32,000 bases of DNA from Cupriavidus necator (GCF_016127575.1 NZ_CP066019.1:870001-902000); one strand, 5' to 3'. Numbered from the stretch's first letter, positions 16,118 through 32,000 are shown. Notes: generated by a model not told the origin, from the sequence alone. Translations and numbers: made by a program.

Positions 16118-17341
16118 ATGACGAACCGGCAAGACCTGCCGCTGGCAGGCATACGCGTGGCGGAGTTCGGGCAGTTCATCGCGGCGCCGGGCGCGGCCAT
16201 GATGCTGGCCGACCTGGGCGCCGACGTGGTCAAGGTGGAGGCCTTGCGCGGCGACAGCGCGCGGCGCTTTGACGGCACCAGCCCGCAGAGCCCGATGTAC
16301 CTGGCCTACAACCGCGGCAAGCGCGGCATAGCGCTGGACCTGCGCACGCCCGGCGGGCTGGACGCCGCACGGCGGCTGGCGCTGGCCAGCGACGTGGTGC
16401 TGCACAACACCCGCGCCGGCGTGATGGAAGCGCTGGGGCTGGACGCCGCCACGCTGCGCGCGGCGCGTCCCGACCTGATCCATGCCTCCATCAGCGGCTT
16501 CGGCACGCGTGGGCCGTCGCGCACGCGCCCCGGGCTGGATATTGCCGCGCAGGCCGAGAGCGGCATGATGTCCGTCACCGGCGAGGCCGGCGGGCAGCCG
16601 CTGAAGGCCGGTTTTGCGCTGATCGACGCGGCCACCGCGCTGGCGACCGGCAACGCCATCCTGGCGGCGCTGTTCCGGCGCGAGCGCACCGGCGCCGGCG
16701 AGACCATCGAGACCTCGCTGCTGTCGGTCGGCGTGCAGATGCAGGCCCAGCTGTGGGCCGAGTACCAGTGCTCCGGCGCGCTGCCGGTGCGCAGCGGCAA
16801 CAGCCAGCCCAAGGCCGCGCCGGCCGCGGATGTGATCGCGGTGGCGGACGGGCATATCGTGCTGTCGGCCTATCTCGACGAGCACTGGACGCGCCTGTGC
16901 GAGGCCATCGGCCAGCCGGCGCTGGCGCACGATCCGCGCTTTGCCTGCAACGCGCTGCGCGTGCAGAACCGCCCGGCGCTGCTGGCCATCCTGCACGACG
17001 CCATGCGCCACCTCAGCGGCGACGCCGCGCGCACGCTGCTGGAGCGCCACCAGGTGGTGGTGGGCGTGGTGCGCGACTACCACCAGGTCAACGCGAGCCC
17101 CGACGTGCGCGCCAGTGGCGTGCTGCAAGCCGTTGACGACGGCGAGGGCGGCCAGCTGGAGCTGCCGGGACTGCCCTTCACCATGGCCAGCATGCCGGCA
17201 GGCGCGATGCCCGCGGTGCCGCGCCTCGGCCAGCATACGACCGAGGTGCTGGCCGAGCTCGGCTTCAGCGCCGCGGAGATTCACACCATGGCCCGCGCCG
17301 GCGCGATCGGCGTGGAACAAGCCCGGCAGGAGCCCGCATGA
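16118..17341 (+). CDS. Family III CoA-transferase (CaiB/BaiF/Frc type)
   Basis: The start was trimmed to the ATG at 16118 with GAGGAG upstream. It begins LPLAGIRVAEFGQFIAAPGAAMMLADLGADVVKVE, then YLAYNRGKRGIALDL, which is typical of family III CoA-transferases. Confidence 0.9.
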   Translation: MTNRQDLPLAGIRVAEFGQFIAAPGAAMMLADLGADVVKVEALRGDSARRFDGTSPQSPMYLAYNRGKRGIALDLRTPGGLDAARRLALASDVVLHNTRAGVMEALGLDAATLRAARPDLIHASISGFGTRGPSRTRPGLDIAAQAESGMMSVTGEAGGQPLKAGFALIDAATALATGNAILAALFRRERTGAGETIETSLLSVGVQMQAQLWAEYQCSGALPVRSGNSQPKAAPAADVIAVADGHIVLSAYLDEHWTRLCEAIGQPALAHDPRFACNALRVQNRPALLAILHDAMRHLSGDAARTLLERHQVVVGVVRDYHQVNASPDVRASGVLQAVDDGEGGQLELPGLPFTMASMPAGAMPAVPRLGQHTTEVLAELGFSAAEIHTMARAGAIGVEQARQEPA

Positions 17342-18027
17342 ACACCCCCCAATCCCCTGTACTGCTGCAGCGCCATGCCGGCTGGGCCGAGGTGGTGCTG
17401 AACCGCCCGGCCCGCCGCAATGCCGTCGACATGTCGCTGGCACGCGCGCTGGGCGACGCCATCGAGACCCTGGCCGCCGACGACAGCGTGCGCGCCGTGC
17501 TGCTGCGCGGCGCCGACGGCGCCTTCTGTTCCGGCCTGGACCTGCAGGCACTGCAGGCGGAGCGCGGCGGGCTGGCCGCGTTTGCGCCGCTCTGGGAGCG
17601 CGTCCACCTGGGCCTGCTGCAAAGCAGCAAGGCATGGATCGTGGCGCTGGAGCGCCATGCCATCAACGGCGGCGCGGCGCTGGCGCTGGCCGGCGACCTG
17701 CTGGTGTGCGGCGCCGGGGCCTTCCTGCAGATCGGCGAGATCCGCCTGGGCATGGCCGCGCCGCGCAATGCCGACTGGCTGGCGCTGCGCCATTCCGAGG
17801 CCGTGGCCGCGCGCCTGTGCCTGCTTGGCGACCGCGTGCCCGCGCCGGAGCTGCTGCGCCTGGGCATTGCCACCGAACTGGTCGAAGACGCCGAGGTGCT
17901 GGACCGCGCGCGCGGCCTGGCCGCCACCATCGGGGGTTTTCCGGCTGATGGCGTGGCTGCGATCAAGGGCGGCATGCGCGCCGCGACGAGGCGCATGGCA
18001 TCTGCTGCGCGCGACAAGAATTCCTGA
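17338..18027 (+). CDS. Enoyl-CoA hydratase/isomerase (crotonase) family protein
   Basis: 229 aa. It reads VVLNRPARRNAVDMSLARAL...LRGADGAFCSGLDL...AINGGAALALAGDLLVCG. Its ATG overlaps the TGA of the upstream gene (ATGA at 17338-17341). Confidence 0.85.
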   Translation: MNTPQSPVLLQRHAGWAEVVLNRPARRNAVDMSLARALGDAIETLAADDSVRAVLLRGADGAFCSGLDLQALQAERGGLAAFAPLWERVHLGLLQSSKAWIVALERHAINGGAALALAGDLLVCGAGAFLQIGEIRLGMAAPRNADWLALRHSEAVAARLCLLGDRVPAPELLRLGIATELVEDAEVLDRARGLAATIGGFPADGVAAIKGGMRAATRRMASAARDKNS

Positions 18028-18041
18028 GGACCGATATTTCC

Positions 18042-19265
18042 ATGACAGATTCCATCACCACCGACGACGACGCGTCGCTGCAGGACTTCCGCCGCGAGGT
18101 GCGCGAGTTCGTCGCCCGGTCGCTGCCCCATGCCGTGCGCGAGAAAGTCCGCCTCGGACTGGAACTCAGCAAGCCAGAGCTGGTCGACTGGCAGCGCCGG
18201 CTGGCCGAACGCGGCTGGCTGGCGCCGCACTGGCCGGCTGAATGGCAGGGCTGCAACTGGAGCGCCGAGCGCCGCGCCGCATTCCAGGAAGAACTGGTGC
18301 TGGCGCACGCGCCCGAGAGCGGCGGCATCACCTTCGAGATGATCGGCCCGATCCTGATCCGCTACGGCACGCCGGCGCAGCAGCAGTACTTCCTGCCGCG
18401 CATCCTGAACCAGGAGCACTGGTGGTGCCAGGGCTATTCCGAACCGAACTCCGGCTCCGACCTGGCTTCGCTGAAGACGCGTGCGGTGCGCAAGACGCGG
18501 CCCGACGGCACCGAGGTCTACGTGGTCAGCGGCAGCAAGATCTGGACCTCCTACGCGCAGTACGCGGACTGGGTCTTCTGCCTGGTGCGCACCGATACCG
18601 AGGCGCGCGCGCAGCGGGGCATCAGCTTCCTGCTGATCGACATGCGCAGCCCCGGCGTCAGCGTGCGGCCGCTGGTGGGCATCCATGGCTGGCACCTGTT
18701 CAACCAGGTGTTCTTCGACGAGGTGGAAGTGCCGGTGCAGAACCTCGTCGGCGAGGAGAACGCCGGCTGGACCATCGCCAAGTCCCTGCTCGAGCATGAG
18801 CGGCTGAACCTGGCGCGCGTGGCGGAGAACCGCCGCCGCCTGGCCAAGGTGCGCGCCATCGGCAACGAGCTGGAGGAGGGCGGCCAGCCGCTGTCGCAGC
18901 GCCCGTGGTTTGCACGCCGGATGCGCGCGCTGGAGGTGCGGCTCGAAGCGCTGGCTGCAACCGTGCTGCGCTTTCGCAAGCGGGCGCGCGCCGGCGAAAC
19001 GCTGGGGCCGGAGACCGGCATGCTCAAGCTGCTGGGCAGCCGGCTGATCCAGGACATCGAGAACCTGGCGGTCGATGCGCTGGGGCCGGACACGCTGGCC
19101 TATGACCGCGCCGCGCACTTCGAGCCCGCCGTGCCGCAAGCGGGACAGTCGGCGTACGCCGCGGCGGCATCGGCGCGCCGCTTCGTCACCCGCGGCTACT
19201 CCATTGCCGGCGGCTCCAGCGAGATCCAGCACGAACTGCTGGCCAAGCAGGTGCTGGGCCTGTAG
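18042..19265 (+). CDS. Acyl-CoA dehydrogenase family protein (large subunit-like)
   Basis: 407 aa. Motifs include WCQGYSEPNSGSDLASLKT, SGSKIWTSYAQYADW, and a C-terminal IAGGSSEIQHELLAK. Confidence 0.9.
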   Translation: MTDSITTDDDASLQDFRREVREFVARSLPHAVREKVRLGLELSKPELVDWQRRLAERGWLAPHWPAEWQGCNWSAERRAAFQEELVLAHAPESGGITFEMIGPILIRYGTPAQQQYFLPRILNQEHWWCQGYSEPNSGSDLASLKTRAVRKTRPDGTEVYVVSGSKIWTSYAQYADWVFCLVRTDTEARAQRGISFLLIDMRSPGVSVRPLVGIHGWHLFNQVFFDEVEVPVQNLVGEENAGWTIAKSLLEHERLNLARVAENRRRLAKVRAIGNELEEGGQPLSQRPWFARRMRALEVRLEALAATVLRFRKRARAGETLGPETGMLKLLGSRLIQDIENLAVDALGPDTLAYDRAAHFEPAVPQAGQSAYAAAASARRFVTRGYSIAGGSSEIQHELLAKQVLGL

Positions 19266-19308
19266 TGGCTCCAATCGTGCCCGCAACCCAGGACAAGGAA
19301 CTGAACAC

Positions 19309-20454
19309 ATGAGCGATCCAACGGACGATCGCCGCATGCTGCAGGAAAGCGTGCGGCGCTATGTCGAACGCGGCTACGGCTTCGAGCAGCGCCGCGCGGC
19401 GCTGGCCGAGCCCGATGGCTTCTCGCGCAAGCACTGGCAGGCGTTTGCCGAAATGGGCTGGCTGGCCGTGGGGCTGCCCGAAGCCTGCGGCGGCCTGGGC
19501 GATGCCGCGGACCAGGCCCTGCTGGCCGAGGAACTGGGCCGCGCCCAGCCTGCCGAGCCCTGGCTGGCCAATGCCGCGCTGTGCGCGCCGCTGCTGGCCG
19601 CCTGCGGCGATCCCGCCCACGCCGCGATCGCGGCGGCGATGGCCGAGGGTGGCGCGATGCTGGCGCTGGCCGCATGGGAAACGCAGGGACGCTATGACGC
19701 CTTCGATATCAGCACCACCGCGCAACAGCATGAGCCGGGGCAATGGACGCTGGACGGCCGCAAGACCCTGGTGCTGGGCGGCGGCAGCGCCGCGGTGCTG
19801 CTGGTGCTGGCGCGTAGCGGCGGCCAGCGCCGCGACCGCGACGGCCTGACACTGTTCGCGGTGCCGGCCGACATGCGCGGCATCAGCGTCGATGCGCTGC
19901 CGACCTACGACGGCCGCCAGACCGCCAGCGTGACGCTGCGCCGCGCGACCGTGCCGGACAGCGCGCGCATCGGCCCGGTGGACGGCGCCTGGCCGCTGGT
20001 GGAAGCCGCCATCGACCAGGCCACGGTGATGGCCTGCGCCGAAGCCGTGGGCACCATGTCGCGCGCGTTCGACCTGACCCGCGACTACCTGGTGACGCGC
20101 GAGCAGTTCGGCCGCGCGCTGACGGCCAACCAGGTGATCCGGCACCGGCTGGTGGACCTCTATGTCAGCGTCGAGCAGGCACGCGCCATCACCGAGCTGG
20201 CGGCCAACGCCCTGCATGGCGATGCGGTGGCGCGCATGCGCGCGGTATCCCATGCCAAGGCCTTTGTCTCGGATGCCGGGCGCGCGCTCGGCGAAGACGT
20301 GGTGCAGCTGCACGGTGCGGTGGGCATGACCGACGAGATGGAAATCGGCCACTGCTACAAGCGCCTGGCAGCCCACGCCAACCTGTTCGGCGATGCCGAC
20401 TGGCACTACGAACGGCTGGCGGCACTCGATCACGCGGCGCAGGCGCAAGCCTGA
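19309..20454 (+). CDS. Acyl-CoA dehydrogenase family protein (second, more divergent copy)
   Basis: The start was trimmed to the ATG at 19309 with AAGGA upstream. 381 aa with ACAD-fold blocks (LDGRKTLVLGG, REQFGRALTANQVIRHRLVDL, LHGAVGMTDEMEIGHCYKR). Confidence 0.85.
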   Translation: MSDPTDDRRMLQESVRRYVERGYGFEQRRAALAEPDGFSRKHWQAFAEMGWLAVGLPEACGGLGDAADQALLAEELGRAQPAEPWLANAALCAPLLAACGDPAHAAIAAAMAEGGAMLALAAWETQGRYDAFDISTTAQQHEPGQWTLDGRKTLVLGGGSAAVLLVLARSGGQRRDRDGLTLFAVPADMRGISVDALPTYDGRQTASVTLRRATVPDSARIGPVDGAWPLVEAAIDQATVMACAEAVGTMSRAFDLTRDYLVTREQFGRALTANQVIRHRLVDLYVSVEQARAITELAANALHGDAVARMRAVSHAKAFVSDAGRALGEDVVQLHGAVGMTDEMEIGHCYKRLAAHANLFGDADWHYERLAALDHAAQAQA

Positions 20455-20559
20455 GCCGGTTCAGCCAGGGCGCCCGGGCCGCTGCCCGGTGCGCCCACCC
20501 ATGACACGCCGGCAACGCACCGGCATGCGCGGCCAATGCGCCGCAACGGAGACAGCAAT

Positions 20560-21567
20560 ATGAGCAGCCAGCACACTGGCGCCCGCAGGGCTTGTGCCAC
20601 GCGCACAGCAGCCCTGGCCGCGGCGCTGGCCCTGGCGGGCGCCGCCAGCGCGCACGCCGAGGCCCCGTACCCCAGCAAGCCCATCCGCATGGTGCTGCCC
20701 TCGGGCGCGGGCACCGTCACCGACCAGACGGCACGGCTGGTGGCCGAGCGCCTGACCGCCGCGCTCAGGCAGCCGGTGGTGGTCGACAACCGCCCCGGCG
20801 CCAACGGCATCATCGCCAACGAGACCGTGGCGCGCGCCGCGCCCGACGGCTACACGTTGCTGTTCACCTATGCCGCGACCATGACGGTGAACCCGTGGAC
20901 CACGCCGTCGCTGCCCTATGACCCGATCAAGGACTTCACCCCCATCGCACGCCCCAGCCAGCCCGGCGGCAACCTGCTCGCGGTCAGCGCCAATGTGCCG
21001 GTGCACAGCCTGCAGGAGCTGATTGCCTACGCCAGGTCCAGCAAGACGGAACTGGCGTACTGCTCTTGGGGCGTGGGCTCGGGCGGCCACCTGGCCATGG
21101 AATACCTGAAGGCCAAGACCGGCATCCACCTGCGCCATATCCCCTACAAGACCGCCACCCAGTGCAGCAACGACCTGGCCGCGGGCCACGTCACCGTCGG
21201 CATCACCGACGCCATCTCGTCGGTCCCGCACCTGAAGTCCGGCCGCATACGGGGCATTGCGATCTCCGGACCGGAGCGCCTGCTGACGGCTCCGGACGTG
21301 CCGACCATGTCGCAGCAGGGCGTGCCCTTCCAGCAAGCCAGCTGGGTCGCGATCTTCGGCCCCAGGGGCCTGCCCGCGCCGATCGTCAACCGGCTCAACG
21401 CCGAGGTGAATCGCATCCTGCAGACACCGGGCGACCGCGAGAAATTCACTGCCATGAACCTGCAGCCGGCCGCGCCGTCGAGCCCGGCCGACCTGGGCAA
21501 GCTGGTCAGCGCCGACCTGGCCGCGTGGGGCGAGGTGGTGAAGGTGGCGGGGCTGCAGGCGAAGTAA
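20560..21567 (+). CDS. Bug-family (TctC-like) substrate-binding protein
   Basis: The start was trimmed to the ATG at 20560. It has a signal peptide ending ASAHA, then PIRMVLPSGAGTVTDQTAR, VVDNRPGANGIIA, PDGYTLLF and HIPYK. Confidence 0.9.
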   Translation: MSSQHTGARRACATRTAALAAALALAGAASAHAEAPYPSKPIRMVLPSGAGTVTDQTARLVAERLTAALRQPVVVDNRPGANGIIANETVARAAPDGYTLLFTYAATMTVNPWTTPSLPYDPIKDFTPIARPSQPGGNLLAVSANVPVHSLQELIAYARSSKTELAYCSWGVGSGGHLAMEYLKAKTGIHLRHIPYKTATQCSNDLAAGHVTVGITDAISSVPHLKSGRIRGIAISGPERLLTAPDVPTMSQQGVPFQQASWVAIFGPRGLPAPIVNRLNAEVNRILQTPGDREKFTAMNLQPAAPSSPADLGKLVSADLAAWGEVVKVAGLQAK

Positions 21568-21601
21568 GGCTGGACCACAACAACAACGGGAGACAGGCAG
21601 C

Positions 21602-22645
21602 GTGAAGGTAAGACAGTGGATGGTGATGGGTGCGGCGCTGGCCGCGGGCAATGCCGTGGCGGGCACGATGCAGTTGTTCGGGGTGGTCGATGCATCGATC
21701 GAATACGCCAGGGGCTCGGAAAGCGTGGTGCGCATGCGCGAAGGCCAGCAGGCCGCGTCGCGCTGGGGCATCCGCGGCATCGAGGACCTGGGCGGCGGGC
21801 TCAAGGCCAACTTCCTGGTCGAGTCGGGCTTCAATATCGACAACGGCACCGAGTTCTTCGGCAACAACCGGCTGTTCGGGCGGCAGGCCTATCTGGGCCT
21901 GTCGGGCAACTGGGGCGAGTTCCGGCTGGGGCGGCAGTACACGCCGTCGTTCTATGCGCTGCTGCGGCTGGATCCGTTCCTGCTCAATGGCGCGGTGTCG
22001 CCGTTCAACCTGCTGAGCGCGACCGCATCACAGGGCACCGGGCACGTGGCCTACGGCGCCCGCTTCGACAACGCGGTGCAGTATTTCTCGCCCAAGTGGG
22101 GCGGCTTTTCCTTCGGCGCAGCGGTGGCGCCGGGCGAGGTGCCGGGGTCGGCGCGCTCAGGGCTGAACTTCGGCATGAATGCGACCTACGAGGCCGGCAA
22201 CGTCTACGCGTTCTACTCCTACCAGGGGATGTATTCGGGCGCCAACGTGCCGGTGGAACCGACGCTGACTTCCAACCATTTCGTCGGCGGCTCCTATCGC
22301 TTCAAGCCGGTGGAAATCGGCCTGCTGTACAGCGCCGCCAGCAGCGACCGGCCCGAGACCCGCTCGGCACGCCACTACGGCGTGACCTTCAGCTGGAACG
22401 TGACGCAGCGCGACACCTTCAAGGCCGCCGCACTCAAGCGCCAGATCCTGGGCGGCGGCCAGCGGCCGCTGGCGGTGACGCTGGGGTGGGACCATGACCT
22501 GAGCAAGCGCACCACCGCCTATGTGCGGGCGGTGCTGGTGCATAACAGCCCTGGCGGCAGCGTGAGCAACAACAGCATCGTGATCGATCCGGGTAGCGGG
22601 GATGATGCGAAGTCGGTGAGCGTGGGGTTGCGGCATCGGTTCTGA
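21602..22645 (+). CDS. Outer-membrane general porin (Burkholderiales OmpC/Omp38-like)
   Basis: GTG start. It has a signal peptide ending NAVAG, then the typical N-terminus TMQLFGVVDASIEY...SRWGIRGIEDLGGGLKANFLVESGFNIDNG...GRQAYLGLSG.WGEFRLGRQYTP and a C-terminal aromatic residue (..GLRHRF). Confidence 0.85.
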   Translation: MKVRQWMVMGAALAAGNAVAGTMQLFGVVDASIEYARGSESVVRMREGQQAASRWGIRGIEDLGGGLKANFLVESGFNIDNGTEFFGNNRLFGRQAYLGLSGNWGEFRLGRQYTPSFYALLRLDPFLLNGAVSPFNLLSATASQGTGHVAYGARFDNAVQYFSPKWGGFSFGAAVAPGEVPGSARSGLNFGMNATYEAGNVYAFYSYQGMYSGANVPVEPTLTSNHFVGGSYRFKPVEIGLLYSAASSDRPETRSARHYGVTFSWNVTQRDTFKAAALKRQILGGGQRPLAVTLGWDHDLSKRTTAYVRAVLVHNSPGGSVSNNSIVIDPGSGDDAKSVSVGLRHRF

Positions 22646-23053
22646 AACGGACTGCTGCCCGTTCATGCGGCGCTGAGGCCAAGCGGCTGAGGCTACGGAG
22701 ACCCGGGGCGGGCTGCCACCTGTCCCGTGGCGCTCCCCGCAAACTGGGGGAGGGCGCCAATCTCTAGAACGCATCCCGGGCTGTCGCTCGTGTCGGGTCA
22801 TTTTCCTTTGTGCTTACTCTTCGCGCTTCACAAGGCGAACGAAATCGCACGGAACGACCCTATAGATCATGGCGATACGAGATTGATATAGGACATCCCT
22901 TAATTTCTATTGGAATTCTCATTCAATCGAAAACAATGGCGATATCTGAATAATCCACCTTCCTTCCTCAACGCATAACGGCTACCGTACGCGACGAACG
23001 CATCTTCTTGACGGTCATGCAAATGACGCGAGAAGCAAAGCACCGGAACACTG

Positions 23054-25126
23054 GTGCTTCTGCGGCAAGAGAAAGTTCAACGCTACGGAGTGCTGCACTT
23101 GGATAACCGACCGCCGTTCCTTTCCTCCCGCACCGTCACCGTGTCTGGTCCGGCGTTGCCGGAACTCTTCGGACAGTCCCCCTTTACCTTCGTACGCCTG
23201 GATGGCAAGGAAGGCGTCTGCGGCCTGTTCGAATACGACATCGAACTGAAGACGCCGGACAAGGCCTACAACTTCCACGGCCCGGAAGGCAACTTCGACT
23301 TGCGCGAGATGAACGGGCGCGAGCTGACCGTTCGCATCGAACTGGATGGCATGGGCACCGGGATGGCAGGCGGCGTGGGTGCCGGCACGCGTGAGATCAG
23401 CGGCATAGTGGACCGCGCCCGCTACCTGCGCGCCGAAGGGCGGCACTTTGTCTACGGACTGACCCTGCGTCCCTGGCTGTGGATCGCCTCCCAGAACCGG
23501 AACAGCCGCGTCTTCGAGAACCGCACCGACATCGAGATCATCGAAGAGGTCCTGTCTGCATACTCCTTTCCGGTTGAGCGCAGGCTCGACGTGGCGAAAT
23601 ACCCCAGGCGGGTCTACCGCACCCAGTGCGACGAGAGCGACTACACCTTCATCGCCCGCCTCATGCAGCACTGGGGCATATCGTGGTTCTTCGAACATTC
23701 TGACGGCAAGCACCGCCTGGTTCTGGTCGATCACGTCGGTGGCTATTTCAGCATGCCGAGCGAGGCGTACCAGGTGCTGGAAATCCATCCGCCTGGCGTC
23801 AGGGTCGACCAGGAACACCTCGATGCGTTCTCGGTTGTCGATGCCGTGGTCGCAGGCAAGTACACGACCAATGCCTACAGCTTCACCCAGCCGCGCGGCA
23901 ACCTGAGCGCCAGCAGTTCGGACCCGCGGGACACGGGCCTGAACACTGGCGCGCTGCACCAGGAGGTGTACGACTTCCCCAGCGAGCATGCCCAGCCGGC
24001 CACGGACAACCGCCCGTGGGACGAAGGCGACATGATCGCCCGCATCCGCATGGAGGAAATCCGTTCGCGTGGCCTGCGCTGCTTTGGCACCGGCAACCTG
24101 CGCGCGGTGGTGCCAGGCTGCACCATGAATGTGAAGGGACACCCCCAGCAGGCGGCCAACCGCGAGTACGTGGTGCTTGGCGCCAACCTCAGGCTGGAAG
24201 ACGTGGCCGAGGCCTCCGGCGAGGGCCAGCGCTGGCATTGCCGCGTCGAGTTCGAGTGCCACCCCACCCATGAGGTCTTCCGTCCGGCGCTGAGCATCCC
24301 GTGGCCGGTGGTCGCTGGGCCGCAAAGCGCGACCGTGGTCGGGCCGGAAGACAGCCATGTCGTGTGGCCGGATCAGTATGGGCGCGTCCGCGTCCAGTTT
24401 CCGTGGGACCGCTTCAACAAGATGTCCTGCTGGGTGCGCGTGGCCACGCCGTGGGCGGGCTCACAGTACGGCCAGATCAGCATCCCGCGTATCGGCAGCG
24501 AAGTTCTGGTGATGTTCCTGGACGGCGGCGATCCGGACAAGCCCATTGTGATGGGGGCGGTGCCGAACAGCCTCAACATGCCGCCATGGCAGCTGCCGGA
24601 CCAGCTCGCTCTCACCGGCATTCGCAGCCGCGAGCACGATGGTGGTCGTAGTAACCACCTGGTGCTGGACGACACCAAGGGAAAAATCCAGGCGCAGCTC
24701 GCATCGGACCACCTGCAGTCGCAGATCAGCATGGGGTACATCACCGGCATTCCTGACGTGCAGGGACGCCGCGACAAGCGTGGTGAGGGGCTGGAGGCGC
24801 GCACCGATGGACATGCCGCGCTACGCGCGGCGTTGGGCATGCTGCTAACCACCTACCCCCGATCCCGCGCACGCGACGCGTGTCTGGTACGCCTATTCGC
24901 ATGTGGCCTGGACCAAGGCCCAACTGAACGACAACAAGCACAAAGTCGATGTGCGCAGGGCTCATATGCAATGCCTCGACGTGGCCGCCTGGATGGGCAA
25001 CCAGAACCAGCCACACGCCGGCCGCGCGACGGAAATCAACAAGCGCGTGGCATCGTTCGCCATGACGCCCGAAGCGCAGCAACAAGCATTCCGGCATCTG
25101 AGCGCCACACCACCCGGAACCATTAA
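23054..25126 (+). CDS. vgrG: T6SS VgrG spike protein; VgrG-like only to about codon 602 (nt about 24859), then an out-of-frame tail (probable truncation or pseudogene)
   Basis: gp27-like and gp5-like hallmarks are present: FEYDIELKT, RFFVYGLTLRPWLW-type block (RHFVYGLTLRPWLWIA), QCDESDYTFIARLMQHWGISWFFEH, GPQSATVVGPE...VWPDQYGRVRVQFPWDR, SCWVRVATPWAG.QYG.ISIPRIGSEVLVMFLDGGDPDKPIVMGAV, NHLVLDDTKGKIQAQL, and GLEARTDGHAALRAALGMLLTT. After ..TTYP the frame gives 88 Arg-rich residues that overlap the next ORF. The start codon is uncertain: a GTG at 23054, or a TTG at 23099 preceded by GGAG. Confidence 0.85.
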   Translation: MLLRQEKVQRYGVLHLDNRPPFLSSRTVTVSGPALPELFGQSPFTFVRLDGKEGVCGLFEYDIELKTPDKAYNFHGPEGNFDLREMNGRELTVRIELDGMGTGMAGGVGAGTREISGIVDRARYLRAEGRHFVYGLTLRPWLWIASQNRNSRVFENRTDIEIIEEVLSAYSFPVERRLDVAKYPRRVYRTQCDESDYTFIARLMQHWGISWFFEHSDGKHRLVLVDHVGGYFSMPSEAYQVLEIHPPGVRVDQEHLDAFSVVDAVVAGKYTTNAYSFTQPRGNLSASSSDPRDTGLNTGALHQEVYDFPSEHAQPATDNRPWDEGDMIARIRMEEIRSRGLRCFGTGNLRAVVPGCTMNVKGHPQQAANREYVVLGANLRLEDVAEASGEGQRWHCRVEFECHPTHEVFRPALSIPWPVVAGPQSATVVGPEDSHVVWPDQYGRVRVQFPWDRFNKMSCWVRVATPWAGSQYGQISIPRIGSEVLVMFLDGGDPDKPIVMGAVPNSLNMPPWQLPDQLALTGIRSREHDGGRSNHLVLDDTKGKIQAQLASDHLQSQISMGYITGIPDVQGRRDKRGEGLEARTDGHAALRAALGMLLTTYPRSRARDACLVRLFACGLDQGPTERQQAQSRCAQGSYAMPRRGRLDGQPEPATRRPRDGNQQARGIVRHDARSAATSIPASERHTTRNH

Positions 25127-27062
25127 CCTGGGCGAGATTGCTCCGATTGGCCCCATAAGCGGTTCGATGCTTGCGGATCGGATGGAGATCGTGTCCCCCG
25201 GCAAGGCGATGATGCTGGCGTTCAATGATCCGCTCGCAATCACTGAAGACCTGGGCATCCTGACCAATCCCAAGCTGCACGCTAAGGCAAACAACGGCGT
25301 CATCTGGGACAAGGCAACAGATCTGTTCCTGGATACGCTCGAAAAGAACATCCGGGCCAACGCCGAGGCGCAGCACACGAAAGAGGCGGAGGCCGCGGCG
25401 GCCGAGGCTGAGCGCATGAAGACCACGCCGGATGGATTTCCGGCTTACGAACTCATGTCGGTTCTGTTTAATGGAAAAGCGACGGCCGAGCGATGGAAGC
25501 GCGAAGATGCGGAGCGTGAAGCCACGCGACTTGCCCGCAAGAAAGCCGCCAGTGACGCCGCCTGGAAACCCTACGAAGACGAACTCACGCCAGGCAAGCG
25601 CCACCAGGACCTGAGTCCCAGACTGAAGGCCCTCAACGAGGACGTGCTGGCACCCATTGCGACCTCGCTCGCACAGTGGCTCATGAGTCCTCAGCTTGCT
25701 TCCTACATGCAATACCGGCATGACAAGATGGACCTGCCGCACGGCTATGTCTACAACGAATCCCTGACGCGCTGCCTGGAGAACGCGCTCGACACCGTGG
25801 AATGCCGTCGGGTCATCCAGCGTTGGTTCAACGAGGCGAATCCGGAGAACCACAGCAATCTGCTTGCGCGCGCCCTGTTGCTGGACCACAAGCCCATCAT
25901 CGACACGGTGCCGGACCCGACCGACCAGGGCTATGCTGCCATCTTCGGCATCCTGAAGAGCGGTCTCGACAAGATGGACTCCATGGCAAAGGGCCTCACT
26001 CTTCCCGAAGCCCTAGCGAAGATGGGCCTGGTACCGCGCCTGACCTGGATACTGGCCGACCAGATCATCCCGACCCTTGCAAACAGCTTCAGTTCGGCAT
26101 CGGCCAGGCTCGCCTTGTACGGGATGAGCCTGCTAGGCGGCGTGCGCCTGATCGCCCCGACGGCCAGCGTCATGCAAATCCGCGCGGTCGTGCTGAACGA
26201 TCTCTCCACAGTGAATCCGGAGTTGTACAAGCAACTGGACCGCACCCGACGGCGCGAGGACGCCGTGGCACTCGGACGCGCGGCCAAGCGCATGGCTCAA
26301 ACCGCCAGATTGGTGTGGTTCAAGACAGAGGACCTGGAGCGCATTCCGGAACTGAGCGCCCTCAAGCTGCGTACCGCCAATGACGTGCCTGGGGTGCGGC
26401 AAGTCAAGGCGGTCCTGGGTTCACGCTTCGTGAATGTCGGGGCGGTCGCCTGCATCCTGCAGGGACTGGCACTCTATCACGCCACGCAATCGTTCCGCGC
26501 AGCGGGCGAGTTCGACGAACCCGAAAGAGGAATCAAGCTGGTCGGCGGCCTGGTGTCCATGGCCGGGACCCTTGCCGAGCAGACTGGCGTCGTGCTGGAG
26601 AAGGCGCCGACGCACGTAATTGTCCGGCGCATCATGCGCTCGCCGCCGAAGGCGGAATGGCTGGAAATGGGCAAGAAGCTGGCTGTCAGAGGGCGTTGGA
26701 TTGGTTTTGCCGGGGCTGCAGTTGGGGTGGGATGGGATGCGTACCATGCCTACGATGAAGGCATGAGGGGAAACCGGACAGTCTCAATACTATATTTTGG
26801 CTCTGCGATGTCCGGAGGCGCAGCAGCCGTCCTCCCGCTGGCGACTGAAGAATTCCTGGCCTTCCTCGTTGGGGTGCCTAGCTGGCCGTTCCTAGTCGTG
26901 TTGCTCGCGGTGAACATCGGCATCCTGATACTAGACGACCCGGCGACGCTCAAGTGGGCCAAGCGTTGCCGTTTCAGCAAGGGACCCGCCAGCGAACGCT
27001 ACACCAGCCTGGAGACCGAGTCGTTCGAGTTCGTGCAACTGGGCCTCAAGGACGTCAAATAG
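24903..27062 (+). CDS. VasX / BTH_I2691-family-like T6SS membrane-targeting toxin, apparently lacking its N-terminal region
   Basis: The frame is open from 24849 (after a TAA at 24846-24848) and has no ATG or SD. The track start is a GTG. The motifs YAYSHVAWTKAQL and GKAMMLAFNDPLAITEDLG match blocks I recall from the middle of the VasX_N/BTH_I2691 effector family. A charged coiled-coil-like segment is present (EAEAAAAEAERMK...REDAEREATRLARKKAA). The C-terminal 330 aa or so hold several long hydrophobic helices (FVNVGAVACILQGLALY, IKLVGGLVSMAGTLA, WIGFAGAAVGVGW, ILYFGSAMSGGAAAVLPLA, FLVGVPSWPFLVVLLAVNIGILIL), as in colicin-like pore formers. Confidence 0.6.
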   Translation: MAWTKAQLNDNKHKVDVRRAHMQCLDVAAWMGNQNQPHAGRATEINKRVASFAMTPEAQQQAFRHLSATPPGTINLGEIAPIGPISGSMLADRMEIVSPGKAMMLAFNDPLAITEDLGILTNPKLHAKANNGVIWDKATDLFLDTLEKNIRANAEAQHTKEAEAAAAEAERMKTTPDGFPAYELMSVLFNGKATAERWKREDAEREATRLARKKAASDAAWKPYEDELTPGKRHQDLSPRLKALNEDVLAPIATSLAQWLMSPQLASYMQYRHDKMDLPHGYVYNESLTRCLENALDTVECRRVIQRWFNEANPENHSNLLARALLLDHKPIIDTVPDPTDQGYAAIFGILKSGLDKMDSMAKGLTLPEALAKMGLVPRLTWILADQIIPTLANSFSSASARLALYGMSLLGGVRLIAPTASVMQIRAVVLNDLSTVNPELYKQLDRTRRREDAVALGRAAKRMAQTARLVWFKTEDLERIPELSALKLRTANDVPGVRQVKAVLGSRFVNVGAVACILQGLALYHATQSFRAAGEFDEPERGIKLVGGLVSMAGTLAEQTGVVLEKAPTHVIVRRIMRSPPKAEWLEMGKKLAVRGRWIGFAGAAVGVGWDAYHAYDEGMRGNRTVSILYFGSAMSGGAAAVLPLATEEFLAFLVGVPSWPFLVVLLAVNIGILILDDPATLKWAKRCRFSKGPASERYTSLETESFEFVQLGLKDVK

Positions 27063-27071
27063 GACTCTTCG

Positions 27072-28187
27072 ATGAAATTCCCGACCAAGGATGAACGCAC
27101 GCCTTTCTACTTCCGCCAACAGGGCAAACCGCTGGGCAAGTGGGAGCAAGAACACCGGCTCCATGTCGGCCAGCCTGCCAGCGAGCATGTGCTGGAGAGC
27201 GGCAATGTCTACCGCATTGATTCGACCTGCCTGGAGATCACCGATGAGTCGCAGGCTCGGATGCAGAACGTTGGTCTGCTTTGGATTATCTGTTCAGCAT
27301 TTGCGTCGTTTTCTCTCTTTTACGGATTATTGCTTGCAACTAGCCCATTCAGAGACTCTGAGGAAATGATGGCGAAGAACGGGTATTGGTTCGGTACGAT
27401 CGTCGGCATATTACTTGGCTTTAGTTCTGCAGGCTTCTTCGGTCTGCTTGCCTTCGATCCGATGCGTCGCAACATGTTCACGCTGAAGCGCCGCCCCATC
27501 CGCCTGAACCGGAAGACCCGTCGTATCTATGCCATTCGCACCAAGGACCCGGGCGGCATCTGGGAAGTGCCATGGAACCATGACGAATTCTTCTGTGTGG
27601 GCCATCGGCGCATGGGCGGATTTTCACGCGCCTATGACATGTACGACATCCGCCATTACCAGCTCGACGCGAGTGGCAACGTCGTCCGCGCATTCGTGCT
27701 CGGCCAGTTCGTCTTCACCCTGGAAGAAGCCTACGCGCAGTGGGAATACTACCGCCGCTACATGCAGGACGGGCCGGCTGGGCTGCCCGAGCCATATCGC
27801 TTCTGGGCGCCGCGGGAAACGTTCTGGGAAGGCTACAAGATCTGCAGAGGGGGTAAATTCTCCGGAGCGTTCTTCACCTTGACCGACGTCATCTTTGCAC
27901 CGTTCGCACTGCTGGATGCGATCGCCCGCTGGCTCGTGCTCGTCACGTGCAGTGATCCCGTGTGGCCGCCGGAGATCGAGGCGGCGTGCAAGCCCATGCC
28001 CAATGACCCGTACGCGCGCCCGTACGCCGACGACTACATCGGCGTGCCGAGCGGCCCGGATGCCAGGCCCTCCCGCGAGGATCTGGCGCGAATGCTCGAC
28101 CAGCAGCAGGAGCGACGCAAGCGTGGCGCGCTGACCCGCGCGGAAGCGGAAGCCCTGCTTCGAAGCACTACGGAACAGACCACATGA
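27072..28187 (+). CDS. Predicted inner-membrane protein; candidate cognate immunity protein
   Basis: 371 aa. It starts 9 nt after the toxin stop, with AGGA upstream. It has a hydrophobic hairpin (about aa 67-91 VGLLWIICSAFASFSLFYGLLLATS and about aa 105-128 YWFGTIVGILLGFSSAGFFGLLAF) and a third hydrophobic stretch (FFTLTDVIFAPFALLDAIARWLVLV). Codon usage is lower in GC. The position is the one typical of immunity genes. Confidence 0.5.
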   Translation: MKFPTKDERTPFYFRQQGKPLGKWEQEHRLHVGQPASEHVLESGNVYRIDSTCLEITDESQARMQNVGLLWIICSAFASFSLFYGLLLATSPFRDSEEMMAKNGYWFGTIVGILLGFSSAGFFGLLAFDPMRRNMFTLKRRPIRLNRKTRRIYAIRTKDPGGIWEVPWNHDEFFCVGHRRMGGFSRAYDMYDIRHYQLDASGNVVRAFVLGQFVFTLEEAYAQWEYYRRYMQDGPAGLPEPYRFWAPRETFWEGYKICRGGKFSGAFFTLTDVIFAPFALLDAIARWLVLVTCSDPVWPPEIEAACKPMPNDPYARPYADDYIGVPSGPDARPSREDLARMLDQQQERRKRGALTRAEAEALLRSTTEQTT

Positions 28188-28870
28188 CCGCCACTTCGCC
28201 GCTACCAGCGCCTCACGTTATCTTGATAGAGCAACCTTCCAAGGTACCGGGCAAGCGCGGAATGGAAGGATTCTGGGGCATGCGCTACGGGAACAAGACG
28301 GTCCTGACTGCCTACCTGTCGCCGATCGACCTGCTGTTGGACTCAATGCGGGGCAGCGCCCCCAATCAAGCCTTCAAGTTTCCATCCCTTGACCGGCTGC
28401 CCGCAGCCCGCGTGAAGCAAACCTTCCCGACCGGCGTGGAGTTGGACATTGCCTGCGGCTTTCTCGCCCGCGACGGACAGCTCCTGCTCAGCCCAAGCGG
28501 CAAGTGGCGGCGCAACGTCTTGGTGCATGACGTGCGCGCGCCATTGCGGATGGGAATTCTTATGCCTGAATACACCACCGATGGCCGACGCGAGATCAGC
28601 CGTCTCTTTGAGGGCGCAGGTCTCTTTGCCTGGCAGGACACACTGCAGTCGCTAGCCAGGATCTGGAAGGGCGACCGCATGAAGCACGCAATAGACAGCG
28701 CGCTGGCAACCGCAAGTACGGTAGTGCATTCGGCTGGCCAGGTCGTGAACCAGATCGCCGTATTCGATCCGGAGGCGGAACAATGGCATTTTGTCCCTTG
28801 CCAGACGATGGACGATGTGCCGGAGAACAATCACCCACATGGAGGCGGCGACAGCGCCACGGTAGGCTGA
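28184..28870 (+). CDS. Hypothetical soluble protein of unknown family, translationally coupled to the membrane protein gene
   Basis: 228 aa. ATGA start/stop overlap at 28184-28187. It has no signal peptide or TM segment and no motif I recognise. The coding-like composition continues from the preceding ORFs. Confidence 0.5.
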   Translation: MTATSPLPAPHVILIEQPSKVPGKRGMEGFWGMRYGNKTVLTAYLSPIDLLLDSMRGSAPNQAFKFPSLDRLPAARVKQTFPTGVELDIACGFLARDGQLLLSPSGKWRRNVLVHDVRAPLRMGILMPEYTTDGRREISRLFEGAGLFAWQDTLQSLARIWKGDRMKHAIDSALATASTVVHSAGQVVNQIAVFDPEAEQWHFVPCQTMDDVPENNHPHGGGDSATVG

Positions 28871-28986
28871 CGTTGATTCGGAGCGTCTCGGCCAGACGAC
28901 ACGTTGTTCAATTCAGCCTTTCCTTGAGGCCATGTAATTTGAGACCCTCACCTCACCATGCAGACCGGCGAAATATCAAGGAAGTC

Positions 28987-29014
28987 GCGCCGGCACGGTA
29001 TCCCGTGCCGGCGC
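28987..29014 (-). terminator. Rho-independent-type terminator hairpin between convergent genes
   Basis: Perfect 12-bp stem GCGCCGGCACGG / CCGTGCCGGCGC with loop TATC, 19 nt downstream of the SRPBCC stop (29033). The minus-strand trailing sequence is GACTTCCTTGATATTTC, which is moderately T-rich. It could also stop the + strand island transcript. Confidence 0.6.
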
Positions 29015-29032
29015 CATTCACTTGCCGCAGCC

Positions 29033-29518
29033 CTACTTCAACTGCTGCGCAAACTCATCCAGCTGCGTAATGCAGATGCCCCAGCCTTCATAGAACCCCA
29101 GCTCCTCATGCTGCTTGCGCGTGGCCTCGTCCGGATGCATCACGCGCGCAATGTAGCGGGTGCCGTCACCCTCGTCGGCCATGGTGATGACCGCGGTCAT
29201 CGACAGCCACGGCTTGTTGGGCCGGTACCCGGCCACCAGGGCCGAGGTGGAGACGATCTTCTCCATCGGCACGATCTCGAGGAAGCATCCCGGGTTGTCG
29301 CTGACGCCGCCGTCCGGGCCTTTCATGAGGGTATGGAAGGCGCCGCCGGGGCGCATGTCGAAGGCCAGGACCTCGGTGGTCCAGGGTTTGGGGCACCACC
29401 ATTCCTTGAGCAGCTTGGGATCGCTCCATGCACGCCAGACCTTGGCACGCGGGGCCTTGAGCAGGCGCGAGATGACCAGGTCCTGGCTTTCAGGGCTGGC
29501 GGCGTTTTCATTCGGCAT
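29033..29518 (-). CDS. SRPBCC-superfamily protein (AHSA1/Aha1-like START fold)
   Basis: The start was trimmed to the ATG at 29516-29518. It reads LVISRLLKAPRAKVWRAWSDPKLLKEWWCPKPW....MRPGGAF...G.YEGWGICITQLDEF, typical of the ArsR-associated SRPBCC proteins. Confidence 0.8.
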   Translation of the reverse strand: MPNENAASPESQDLVISRLLKAPRAKVWRAWSDPKLLKEWWCPKPWTTEVLAFDMRPGGAFHTLMKGPDGGVSDNPGCFLEIVPMEKIVSTSALVAGYRPNKPWLSMTAVITMADEGDGTRYIARVMHPDEATRKQHEELGFYEGWGICITQLDEFAQQLK

Positions 29519-29894
29519 CTGACTGTTCCTCCTGATGAAGGGCTTCGACAAGAGCGGCCAGGCGGTCGGTACGGGCCTCCCACATGGCGCGCTGGTCGGC
29601 CAGCCATTGCTGCGCGTCTGACAGCGGTTGCGGTACCAGTTCGCAAGTGCGCACGCGCCCCGTCTTGCGCGAGCGGATCAGGCCGCTGCGCTCCAGCACC
29701 TGCAGGTGCTTCATGAACGAGGGCAGTGCCATCGTGAACGGTGCCGCCAGCGCCGAGACCGTTTCCGGCCCGCGGCCGAGCACGCTGACGATGGCGCGGC
29801 GGGTCGGGTCCGCCAGCGCGTAGAACACGTCGGAAAGCGGGGAAATATCGACAGCCTGGGACACGTCAGCAAACTCGGCACAATGGTTAGCCAT
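29508..29894 (-). CDS. ArsR/SmtB-family transcriptional regulator
   Basis: The start was trimmed to the ATG at 29892-29894. The wHTH reads VFYALADPTRRAIVSVLGRGPETVSALAAPFTMALPSFMKHLQVLERSGLIRSRKTGRVR. Its 3' end overlaps the SRPBCC start by 11 nt. Confidence 0.85.
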   Translation of the reverse strand: MANHCAEFADVSQAVDISPLSDVFYALADPTRRAIVSVLGRGPETVSALAAPFTMALPSFMKHLQVLERSGLIRSRKTGRVRTCELVPQPLSDAQQWLADQRAMWEARTDRLAALVEALHQEEQSDAE

Positions 29895-29939
29895 GGGGCT
29901 AAGTATAGGGAAGCAAGCGGAAACTGCAAGCGCGAAATG

Positions 29940-29969
29940 CAAGACGCCCCGGCATCAGCCGGGGCGTCT
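29940..29969 (-). terminator. Rho-independent-type terminator downstream of the sorB-like gene
   Basis: Perfect 13-bp stem AAGACGCCCCGGC / GCCGGGGCGTCTT with loop ATCA, 26 nt after the cytochrome stop (29995). The minus-strand trailer is GCATTTCGCGCTTGCAGTTTCC. Confidence 0.6.
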
Positions 29970-29994
29970 TGTGATCGGGGAAGCGGGGCGCAGG

Positions 29995-30657
29995 CTATTG
30001 CTGCCGCACGTACGCCGCCAGCGCCTTGACCTCATCCGCCTTCAAGCCGGCAAACGGCGGCATCGGCACCGATCCCCATTTGCCGCTGCTGCCGCCGCGG
30101 ATGCTGGCTTCCAGCTTGGCCTGTGCCTGCGCATCGCCCTTGTAGCGGGTGGCGACTTCGTGATAAGCCGGGCCGACCACCTTCTGCGTCACGCTGTGGC
30201 AGCTCAGGCAGGCGTTCCTGGCCAGCAGGCCCTGCACGTCCACCGCGGCGGCGGCAGGCGCCGAGGCGGCCGCGGGTGTGGCCGGCGCGGGCTTGCCCGC
30301 CTTCTGCGCGATCGCCACGATCTCCGGGTCCTTGATCCTGGCGGAGCCGTAGGCCACCGCGAGGTAGGCGCCGAGCTGCTCGACCTCGCCATCGTCGATC
30401 GGCGCACCATAGGCCTGCTGCATTTTCTTCATCTCGGCGGTCCACTGCGTCAGGCTCAGGCCGGGCGGCTGGTAGGAGACGTAGTCGGCCGAATGGCAGA
30501 TCGCGCATTTCTGCATGGCGATGCCGTAGCCGGGCAGCTTGGCGGGTTTGAGCTTGACGTTCTCCGCCGGCAGCTTGATGTCCTGGGGGGCCGCGGACGC
30601 GCTGCCCGCGCCCAGCAGGGCGAGCGCGAGCAGCACTGGGGTGATGGATCGATGCAT
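29995..30657 (-). CDS. Periplasmic di-haem c-type cytochrome (SorB-like electron acceptor fused to a c551/c552-like domain)
   Basis: The start was trimmed to the ATG at 30655-30657. It has a signal peptide ending SASA and two CxxCH motifs (CAICH and CLSCH) separated by an Ala/Pro-rich linker (KPAPATPAAASAPAAAAV). The second domain ends with GKWGSVPMPP, typical of small class I cytochromes c. Confidence 0.85.
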   Translation of the reverse strand: MHRSITPVLLALALLGAGSASAAPQDIKLPAENVKLKPAKLPGYGIAMQKCAICHSADYVSYQPPGLSLTQWTAEMKKMQQAYGAPIDDGEVEQLGAYLAVAYGSARIKDPEIVAIAQKAGKPAPATPAAASAPAAAAVDVQGLLARNACLSCHSVTQKVVGPAYHEVATRYKGDAQAQAKLEASIRGGSSGKWGSVPMPPFAGLKADEVKALAAYVRQQ

Positions 30658-30667
30658 GGTGCGCTCC

Positions 30668-31930
30668 TCAGGCGATGGTGACCGGCGTGGATTCAATGAC
30701 GTTGCGGCGATAGCCGGCCGGGTTCCAGTTGGCCTTGGCGGGCTGCACCTCGCCCTGGACGCTGGTGGCGCGCACCATCAGCACCGCCGGGCCCTTGCGC
30801 GCGAACTTCACCGGCAGTTGCCAGGCGCGGAACGAGAAGCGCCCCAGGTCCTGGCCCAGCGTCGCGGCCTGCCAGCTCTGCCCGCCGTCCACCGAGACCT
30901 CGACGCCGCGGATGCCGGAGCCGCCATCGAAGGCAATGCCTTTCAGCTCCACCGTGCGCCCGGCGGGCAGCACGCCGCCGGCGCCCACGCTGGTGATGAA
31001 GCTGCGTACCGCCAGCGTCGAGATCGGTCGCGTCTTGCTGGCGGGGGTGCCCGGCGCCACGCATTGGCAGTCGTTATCCGGTACGCGATAGCCCTTGGTC
31101 ATGAAGAACGCATCATGGCCTTCGAACGGGTGGTCCAGCACCTCGATCTCGGACAGGTGTTTGATCCAGTAGGTGCCGAAGTAGCCCGGCACCACCAGCT
31201 TGACGGGGTAGCCGTTGAGCAGCGGCAGGTCTTCGCCGTTCATGCCCCAGGCCAGCATCGGCTCGCCGTTCATGGCATGGGCGATATCGAGCGACTTGCG
31301 GAAGTCCGGCGTGCTCGGCAACACCGGCGTATCCATCCCGTTGAACGTGACCACCTTGGCGCCGGCCTTGACGCCCGCGTGCTCCAGCACCTTGCGCAGC
31401 GGCACGCCGGTCCAGCGCGCATTGCCCATTGCGCCGTTGGCAAGTTGGGCACCGAACACGCGCGGCTCGGAGAAGCCGCGGCTGTTGCCTGAACACTGGT
31501 TCACGGCGACGATGTCCACCGGATCGGCCAGCCGCTTCAGTTCATCGAGCGACAGCTTCAGCGGCTTGTTGACGTGGCCGCCGACCGTCAGGCGGAAGGT
31601 GGCAAGGTCTACAGACAGCGGAATGTTGGCCAGGTGGTAGCGCACGAAGAAGGCGTCGTTGGCGGTGATCGGCCCCTCGTTGAACGCGGAGAAGGGCGTC
31701 TCAAGGTGTGGCGGCCGGGTGCTGACGCGCACCAGCGGGCGCTTGCCCGGATAGCGCACCAGCGGGCGGGGGCCGTCGGCCAGCGTGACGCCGTCGCTGA
31801 TGCGCGCGGCCAGTGCGCCGAGCGGGGTGGCGCCGAGGGCGAGCAGGCCCGCGCCCTGGACGATGCGGCGCCGGGCCGGCAGCGGCTGGGCGGGGTCGGC
31901 AGATTCCGCCGGACTGTTCTTGTCTCGCAT
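30668..31930 (-). CDS. sorA: Molybdopterin-dependent sulfite dehydrogenase / sulfite oxidase-family catalytic subunit (SorA-like)
   Basis: 420 aa. It has a Tat signal (RRRIVQGAGLLALGA) and Mo-co domain blocks (FFVRYH, VAVNQCSGNSRG with the conserved Cys ligand context, NGEDLPLLNGYPVKLVVPGYFGTYWIKHLSEIEV) plus a C-terminal dimerisation domain. A cytochrome c gene follows 10 nt downstream. Confidence 0.85.
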   Translation of the reverse strand: MRDKNSPAESADPAQPLPARRRIVQGAGLLALGATPLGALAARISDGVTLADGPRPLVRYPGKRPLVRVSTRPPHLETPFSAFNEGPITANDAFFVRYHLANIPLSVDLATFRLTVGGHVNKPLKLSLDELKRLADPVDIVAVNQCSGNSRGFSEPRVFGAQLANGAMGNARWTGVPLRKVLEHAGVKAGAKVVTFNGMDTPVLPSTPDFRKSLDIAHAMNGEPMLAWGMNGEDLPLLNGYPVKLVVPGYFGTYWIKHLSEIEVLDHPFEGHDAFFMTKGYRVPDNDCQCVAPGTPASKTRPISTLAVRSFITSVGAGGVLPAGRTVELKGIAFDGGSGIRGVEVSVDGGQSWQAATLGQDLGRFSFRAWQLPVKFARKGPAVLMVRATSVQGEVQPAKANWNPAGYRRNVIESTPVTIA

Positions 31931-32000
31931 GGGGCGTCTCCTTCAGGGGCTTGTTGTGTCTCGCAAGGCGCTATGGCGGGTACTTTGAGGCCGCGGCATC

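Follow-up and report, generated by a model that had tools for sequence, protein, structure and literature searches.

How do a vgrG gene, for the spike protein of a type VI secretion system (T6SS), and a gene for a VasX-like toxin come to meet in Cupriavidus necator with both genes broken off and their reading frames one base apart? This question is raised by a stretch of 32,000 nucleotides (NZ_CP066019.1, 870001–902000), referred to here as the window and numbered from its first letter. The window was found to be 100% identical to CP196536.1, chromosome 2 of C. necator H16, over 17072–32000. The initial annotation of this locus had considered a deletion scar, a homopolymer indel hiding a fusion and a recoding event, and had preferred the first, in which pseudogenes and immunity genes are left behind. 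This preference is supported by the presence of the intact locus in two relatives, and the junction is very probably the scar of a single 2,027-bp deletion in the H16 lineage, lying inside an auxiliary T6SS module. Sequence comparison shows the deletion, its exact ends and the domain losses, and also that the immunity gene is whole and unchanged.

Reading frames at the junction

A VgrG-like reading on the plus strand begins with the GTG at 23054 and runs to ...ALRAALGMLLTTYP (...GMLLTTYP) at codon 602 (nt 24859), after which the open reading frame (ORF, 23054–25126) continues through 88 Arg-rich residues to a stop at 25124–25126. The toxin frame opens at 24849, after a TAA at 24846–24848, starts with PPTPDPAHATRVWYAYSHVAWTK... 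and extends over 737 codons to 27062. The two frames meet, one base apart, at a run of exactly five Cs (C5, 24856–24860), and taking one C out of this run gives an uninterrupted ORF of 1,335 codons. The statements of the initial annotation on the sequence, from the codon at which VgrG sequence ends to the length of the fused ORF, were all borne out by the reading frames and ORF translations. The nucleotides of the tail on the truncated VgrG (24859–25126, plus strand, 88 codons and a stop) code for toxin residues in the relatives described below, and correspond to toxin codons 135 to approximately 223 read in the wrong frame.

The intact module in related strains

A search of related strains for an intact vgrG-adaptor-toxin arrangement, which had been proposed as a check on the locus, found it at the same site in CP196451.1 (L004) and in strain PHE3-6 (L001; PMC4777769), and these two close relatives were used as intact references. 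Both carry a vgrG of 824 amino acids (aa) with DUF2345, a DUF4123 adaptor gene of 304 aa, a VasX_N toxin gene of 868 aa whose ATG overlaps the end of the adaptor gene, a DUF6708 gene of 371 aa and a 228-aa gene. The flanks are common to H16, L001 and L004, with acyl-CoA dehydrogenases, TctC and a porin upstream and AHSA1, an HTH regulator, cytochrome c and a molybdenum oxidoreductase downstream. Full-length toxins of 860–868 aa that are less closely related occur in modules of the same order in Cupriavidus basilensis and on a contig of run SRR2018068, and the intact arrangement is therefore the ancestral one. The ancestral order would then have been vgrG, tap (DUF4123), a pore-forming effector of the BTH_I2691/VasX family, a DUF6708 immunity gene and the 228-aa gene. 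The converse, an insertion in the relatives with the H16 arrangement as the original one, has nothing in its favor beyond the formal symmetry of any indel and deserves next to no credence. An inserted 2,027 bp would have had to supply, in one step, the missing parts of three reading frames and of four domain models (T6SS_Vgr, DUF2345, DUF4123 and VasX_N/MIX), and the complete arrangement is also present in C. basilensis and the SRR2018068 contig.

In public annotations the H16 locus is split into two proteins, of 675/678 aa and 719 aa, as would be expected at an ordinary gene boundary, with VgrG in this clade normally ending near residue 600 and the toxin normally starting near YAYSHVAWT. Such a boundary is scarcely conceivable beside syntenic relatives with an 824-aa VgrG, an adaptor gene and an 868-aa toxin, and all seven toxin homologues of 860–868 aa extend approximately 130 residues further at the N-terminus. 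The domain models are also cut in the middle, and the truncated-VgrG ORF overlaps the annotated 719-aa toxin ORF, whose GTG has no ribosome-binding site, by 224 nt.

It should also be noted that a PAAR gene comes after the module in C. basilensis and in the SRR2018068 contig. This small gene ends the modules after the second post-toxin gene in C. basilensis (L014, 12399–12677), in Ralstonia and in the SRR2018068 contig (L013, 9204–9470), and no PAAR gene is found 3' of the 228-aa gene in H16 (window 28871–28960), PHE3-6 or CP196451.1. The vgrG of the C. basilensis locus (L014 4211–7087, SUQM01000001.1) encodes only 506 aa with a faint Phage_GPD match, with the rest of the module intact. A small TnpC_reg ORF precedes it by approximately 1.2 kb, and a 5' truncation by a mobile element may have occurred.

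Breakpoints, size and age of the deletion

Comparison with L004 by blastn gave two blocks, window 19099–24858 at 99.8% identity and 24858–32000 at 99.7%, which abut at 24858 in the window and are 2,027 bp apart in both L004 and L001. Base-by-base extension returned the same breakpoints. Homology on the left stops at 24858, where the relative goes on from ...TACCC into GCGCGAACGG, and homology on the right begins at 24858, where the relative reads ...CACCATT followed by CCCGATCCCGCG; one C is shared by both sides. Alignment of the two ORFs to full-length homologues, another check suggested for this locus, showed that the deleted segment comprises vgrG codons 588–824 (237 residues; 824-aa numbering), the whole adaptor gene and toxin codons 1–134 with the ATG. 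The missing N-terminal part of the toxin, put at 200–300 residues in the initial annotation, is therefore 134 residues long, and the removal of an adaptor gene, which had been raised as a possibility, is confirmed by the complete loss of the 304-aa DUF4123 gene relative to the two strains.

At the scar, codon 587 of vgrG runs into codon 135 of the effector gene, and one nucleotide is common to both sides. The C5 run (24856–24860, plus strand) consists of the CCC that ends vgrG codon 586 and begins codon 587 (TAC CCg) and the CCC of toxin codon 135, with the overlapping base at 24858. The run is thus a by-product of the junction and not a pre-existing homopolymer. The length of 2,027 bp (3 × 675 + 2) leaves a remainder on division by three and by itself puts the two frames one base apart, and a second mutation is unnecessary to account for this offset. 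Recombination of an illegitimate or end-joining type, with minimal microhomology, is the probable mechanism. Clean slippage was rejected, whether between the imperfect repeats CACCTACCCG and CACCATTCCCG or between copies of the CCCGCGC heptamer that lie close to the two breakpoints, as either would give C3 or another junction and not C5.

A junction 41-mer is identical in L002, L003, L005 and L008, which are all of the H16-type loci that were fetched. The toxin stump differs from the L004 toxin by eight substitutions in 2.2 kb (three of them non-synonymous), with no stop and no frameshift, and its divergence is similar to that of the flanks. The deletion is recent, with no further decay accumulated.

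The 1,335-codon ORF obtained on removing one C could be taken to mean that the true run is C4 or C7, misread in sequencing or altered by phase-variable slippage, and that it hides a specialized VgrG of 1,335 aa carrying a VasX-like toxin domain. Ralstonia condita does have an in-frame vgrG::toxin ORF, 789 aa long. However, a single event between the parental sequences is expected to leave exactly C5 (TACCC/g joined to tt/CCCGAT), and the junction is missing in relatives that are 99.8% identical. Eleven public contigs carry the 719-aa stump ORF, among them the AM260480.1 genome record, CP196536.1, BCZN01000012.1 and complete assemblies of later date. This indicates an out-of-frame junction, as an in-frame junction would absorb this ORF into a longer call. 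The exact 675-aa product of VgrG plus tail is present in five contigs longer than 1 Mb. Five Cs are a short run for phase variation, for which no support was found at this position, and the supposed protein would have no VgrG beta-helix tip and only a partial MIX domain, unlike the known specialized VgrGs. A metagenome scan with any 3–7 bases in place of the C run (C3–C7 included) gave zero matches, which is weak evidence. A protein search with a 100-aa fusion peptide spanning the junction gave two candidates and no matches, but it did not recover even the known homologues and is thus uninformative. The proposal of a homopolymer indel hiding a fusion thus fails on the length of the deletion, the CCC+CCC origin of the run and the 11 contigs; such a fusion is exceedingly improbable, and a sequencing error at the C5 run is very unlikely.

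Recoding was the other proposal, by which a +1 shift at CCC-C (P-site CCC 24857–24859, followed by a rare CGA) would yield some VgrG-toxin chimera. A CCC-C sequence lets tRNA-Pro re-pair in the +1 frame, and CGA is rare in the local genes (2.6 per 1,000 codons). The shift site was made by the deletion, however, so that it has no evolutionary history and is absent from all relatives, and no stimulatory Shine-Dalgarno-like element lies upstream of CCC-C. The product (junction peptide ..LLTTYPDPAHATR..) would be a chimera of two broken domains, neither half being complete. The junction accordingly has none of the features of a programmed +1 frameshift, namely a conserved site, two functional halves and a stimulator. 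Slippage at CCC-CGA would occur at background level at most and would not be programmed; recoding found no support and is judged very improbable as an account of the locus.

Remains of the VgrG and the toxin

The initial annotation had both genes cut in mid-domain, and the partial Pfam and NCBIfam matches agree. The 5' part of vgrG (23099–24858, plus strand, 99.8% nucleotide identity to L004) retains codons 1–587 of 824. It encodes the gp27-like domain (Phage_GPD, E = 1e-79) and the gp5 OB-fold (Phage_base_V, E = 2e-15) of a VgrG/TssI spike, with matches to TIGR03361 (403 bits) and TIGR01646. The T6SS_Vgr profile is covered only at positions 1–82 of 108, and DUF2345, present in the syntenic 824-aa homologues, is absent by Pfam. 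H16 VgrG consequently has neither a complete C-terminal beta-helical region (T6SS_Vgr plus DUF2345) nor its native C-terminus.

The toxin stump (24858–27062, plus strand) comprises codons 135–868 and aligns without gaps to residues 135–868 of a full-length homologue (P0001) at 96% identity. Only the last 44 positions of the VasX_N profile (113–156 of 156) are matched. The NCBIfam BTH_I2691 model (NF041559) is covered at 113–853 of 858, compared to 2–853 in the intact homologue, and the score of 332 bits (cut-off 150) reflects the central alpha-helical and C-terminal regions of this family. The alpha-helical region and the C-terminal hydrophobic segments are still present. The MIX motif has three segments, shhPhR, hRxGhhYhh and hh[F/Y]SxxxW[S/T] (PMC12909789), which in the intact Cupriavidus toxin are AVLPVR (30–35), MRPGFLYVF (74–82) and YAYSHVAWT (145–153). 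The breakpoint between residues 134 and 135 takes out the first two, and YAYSHVAWT alone remains in the stump. The N-terminus of the intact toxin also matches PDB 9r8g_A (996 aa, 'Toxin VasX N-terminal region domain-containing protein'), a marginal match (E = 3e-4) that covers the N-terminal region only.

Both the toxin's own translation start and the adjacent DUF4123 gene lie inside the deletion. Among the in-frame ATG and GTG codons from 24849 to 25400, including the GTG annotated at 24903, none is preceded by a Shine-Dalgarno-like sequence at a suitable distance. The sole match to a Shine-Dalgarno core in this region lies 4 nt before a GTG at 25191. The effector is probably no longer made from its own start, because this start depended on translational coupling to the adaptor gene, which is lost.

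In Tke5 of Pseudomonas putida, the DUF4123 adaptor Tap3 binds to the surface of the MIX domain; DUF4123 adaptors tie such effectors to VgrG, in the case of Tap6 through a C-terminal motif of VgrG6 (PMC12909789). The H16 effector would thus be without the MIX segments and the adaptor required for its loading on VgrG, and the VgrG would be without its beta-helical C-terminus, including the region bound by DUF4123 adaptors. With start, MIX segments, adaptor and VgrG C-terminus all lost, the weapon arm of the module is expected to be dead. The 675/678-aa 'VgrG' and 719-aa 'hypothetical / BTH_I2691 family' ORFs of H16 are best treated as probable pseudogenes.

Some considerations weigh against this interpretation. 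The non-function of the stumps, and with it the loss of secretion and toxicity, is deduced from sequence. The stump ORF is still open over 2.2 kb, which is expected for a recent event and is no proof of decay. The toxic core of Tke5 is the region corresponding to that of the stump and acts only from the periplasmic side of the membrane, and Tke5 without MIX is still toxic when artificially sent to the periplasm (PMC12909789). The stump may therefore keep a toxic core that could still act in the event of its translation and export. Finally, the promoter assigned to the vgrG operon comes from one weak consensus match, described below.

The retained candidate immunity gene

The DUF6708 gene (27072–28187, plus strand, 371 aa) begins 9 nt after the toxin stop, is intact and encodes approximately three hydrophobic segments. 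Its protein sequence is identical to that of L004, where the toxin is intact. Immunity proteins of the Tke5 family, such as Tki5, are membrane proteins encoded directly downstream of the effector (PMC13133200), and from its position the DUF6708 protein is the obvious candidate and presumed cognate immunity protein. H16 thus has an intact DUF6708 gene beside an inactivated effector, where relatives have intact pairs, as would be expected of an orphan immunity gene. It is followed by the 228-aa gene (28184–28870, plus strand), which has no family match, has a start overlapping the DUF6708 stop and is conserved in position in the intact modules.

A consensus promoter scan of 22400–29200 detected one sigma-70-like site, compared to 1.5 expected by chance. 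This weak match (22927–22954, plus strand) falls within the AT-rich spacer of 453 bp that precedes vgrG; the deletion left it in place, and it is a candidate for the promoter of the operon. The immunity gene is untouched and still downstream of the vgrG promoter region, so continued expression would be expected. H16 is probably still protected against relatives that fire the toxin.

Divergence between H16 and PHE3-6 is clustered at the end of the toxin gene and the start of DUF6708 (window 26650–27550 against L001 12200–13100). The last approximately 130 toxin residues show 80–86% identity per 50-residue window and the first approximately 150 DUF6708 residues 76–82%, with 98–100% over the remainder. 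This pattern looks like a swapped cassette of toxin tip and immunity gene, that is, a different compatibility type.

Relation to known systems

A single T6SS cluster has been reported for H16, elsewhere in the genome (bioRxiv 10.64898/2026.04.04.716520; PMC8356804), and the vgrG-toxin locus is an auxiliary module of this otherwise present machine. A literature search on the H16 locus tags together with Vgr found nothing, and the papers on the T6SS of 'C. necator' concern JMP134 (C. pinatubonensis), not H16. A megablast search of 23054–27062 against a plasmid collection gave no match.

The ancestral Cupriavidus module has the same order as the K3-T6SS module vgrG3-tap3-tke5-tki5 of P. putida (PMC12909789, PMC13133200). 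Tke5 is a pore-forming effector of the BTH_I2691 family with a MIX domain, and the intact Cupriavidus homologue matches NF041559 end to end. In comparison, the H16 module is broken, with the adaptor gone, the MIX domain bisected and the VgrG C-terminus gone. The vgrG-2, vasW, vasX and tsiV2 genes of Vibrio cholerae (PMC3857813) represent the same superfamily (VasX_N) with the same dependence on a DUF4123 adaptor. That module is intact, and its immunity gene tsiV2 is driven by a promoter within the 3' third of vasX (PMC3857813), whereas the consensus scan of H16 found no internal immunity promoter in the 3' region of the toxin.

The specialized VgrGs with C-terminal toxin domains, such as VgrG-1 and VgrG-3 of V. 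cholerae (PMC5361080), bear a superficial likeness to the H16 locus in that VgrG sequence is followed by toxin sequence. In H16, however, the ORF is discontinuous with offset frames, the spike is truncated, the junction is not conserved, the toxin part starts in the middle of a loading domain and the relatives have three separate genes. Another parallel is found in the orphan immunity genes and effector displacement of T6SS clusters, for example the V. cholerae immunity arrays (PMC5361080), where effectors are likewise lost, immunity is kept and 3' fragments of effectors are left. The loss in H16 differs from these in being a simple internal deletion, with no incoming effector-immunity module and no new effector. 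It is a new instance of the well-known loss of an effector with retention of its immunity gene. H16 most likely cannot deliver the pore-forming effector yet should resist relatives that can, which is of relevance to competition experiments and co-culture design with this widely used strain.

Similar scars in Ralstonia and C. necator PHE3-6

Comparable vgrG::toxin junctions were found in Ralstonia. In Ralstonia condita LMG 7141 (L011, 5834–8203), vgrG residues 1–373 are joined to toxin residues 474–865 in frame, giving the single 789-aa ORF mentioned above. The junction in Ralstonia mannitolilytica LMG 6866 (L012, 6324–7507) joins vgrG 1–202 to toxin 705–865 out of frame, and that of an R. mannitolilytica-type contig from run ERR11711521 (L009, 472–1938) joins vgrG 1–38 to toxin ~420–864 in frame (P0010, 488 aa). 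A full-length DUF6708 gene and then a PAAR gene follow each of the three junctions. L009 can be neither a descendant nor the source of L011 or L012, and with H16 counted there are therefore at least three independent vgrG::toxin deletion events. A contig scan with a toxin alignment returned only two Ralstonia loci and missed the Cupriavidus genomes, so that it is unfit for estimates of frequency.

The scars run from within vgrG to within the toxin gene, and the 5' region of vgrG and at least the last approximately 160 toxin codons are always spared. An internal promoter of the vasX type suggests itself as a possible reason for the sparing of the toxin 3' ends. It is tempting to see in the H16 scar one case of a convergent and selected 'disarmed but immune' route in Cupriavidus and Ralstonia, with immunity promoters in the spared stretches possibly being the cause, but this idea is tentative and rather unlikely. 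A rarer addition to a disarmed but immune state could be trace amounts of a VgrG-toxin chimera, arising from +1 slippage at CCC-CGA at background level. The Ralstonia scars provide a small data point for T6SS effectors being lost more readily than immunity genes.

PHE3-6, whose genome has the intact module, also contains a second BTH_I2691 locus (L010 6720–10840, LMVF01000026.1). This locus has no vgrG upstream and consists of a DUF4123 gene, a toxin gene with an internal deletion (residues 2–115 and 323–868 remain; P0004, a 571-aa stump) and then DUF6708.

Outside of the module, a single-base indel was noted at approximately 19345 of the window relative to the AM260480.1 record of H16, which has an extra A. 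It shifts the called start of an acyl-CoA dehydrogenase, giving 367 aa against 381 aa.

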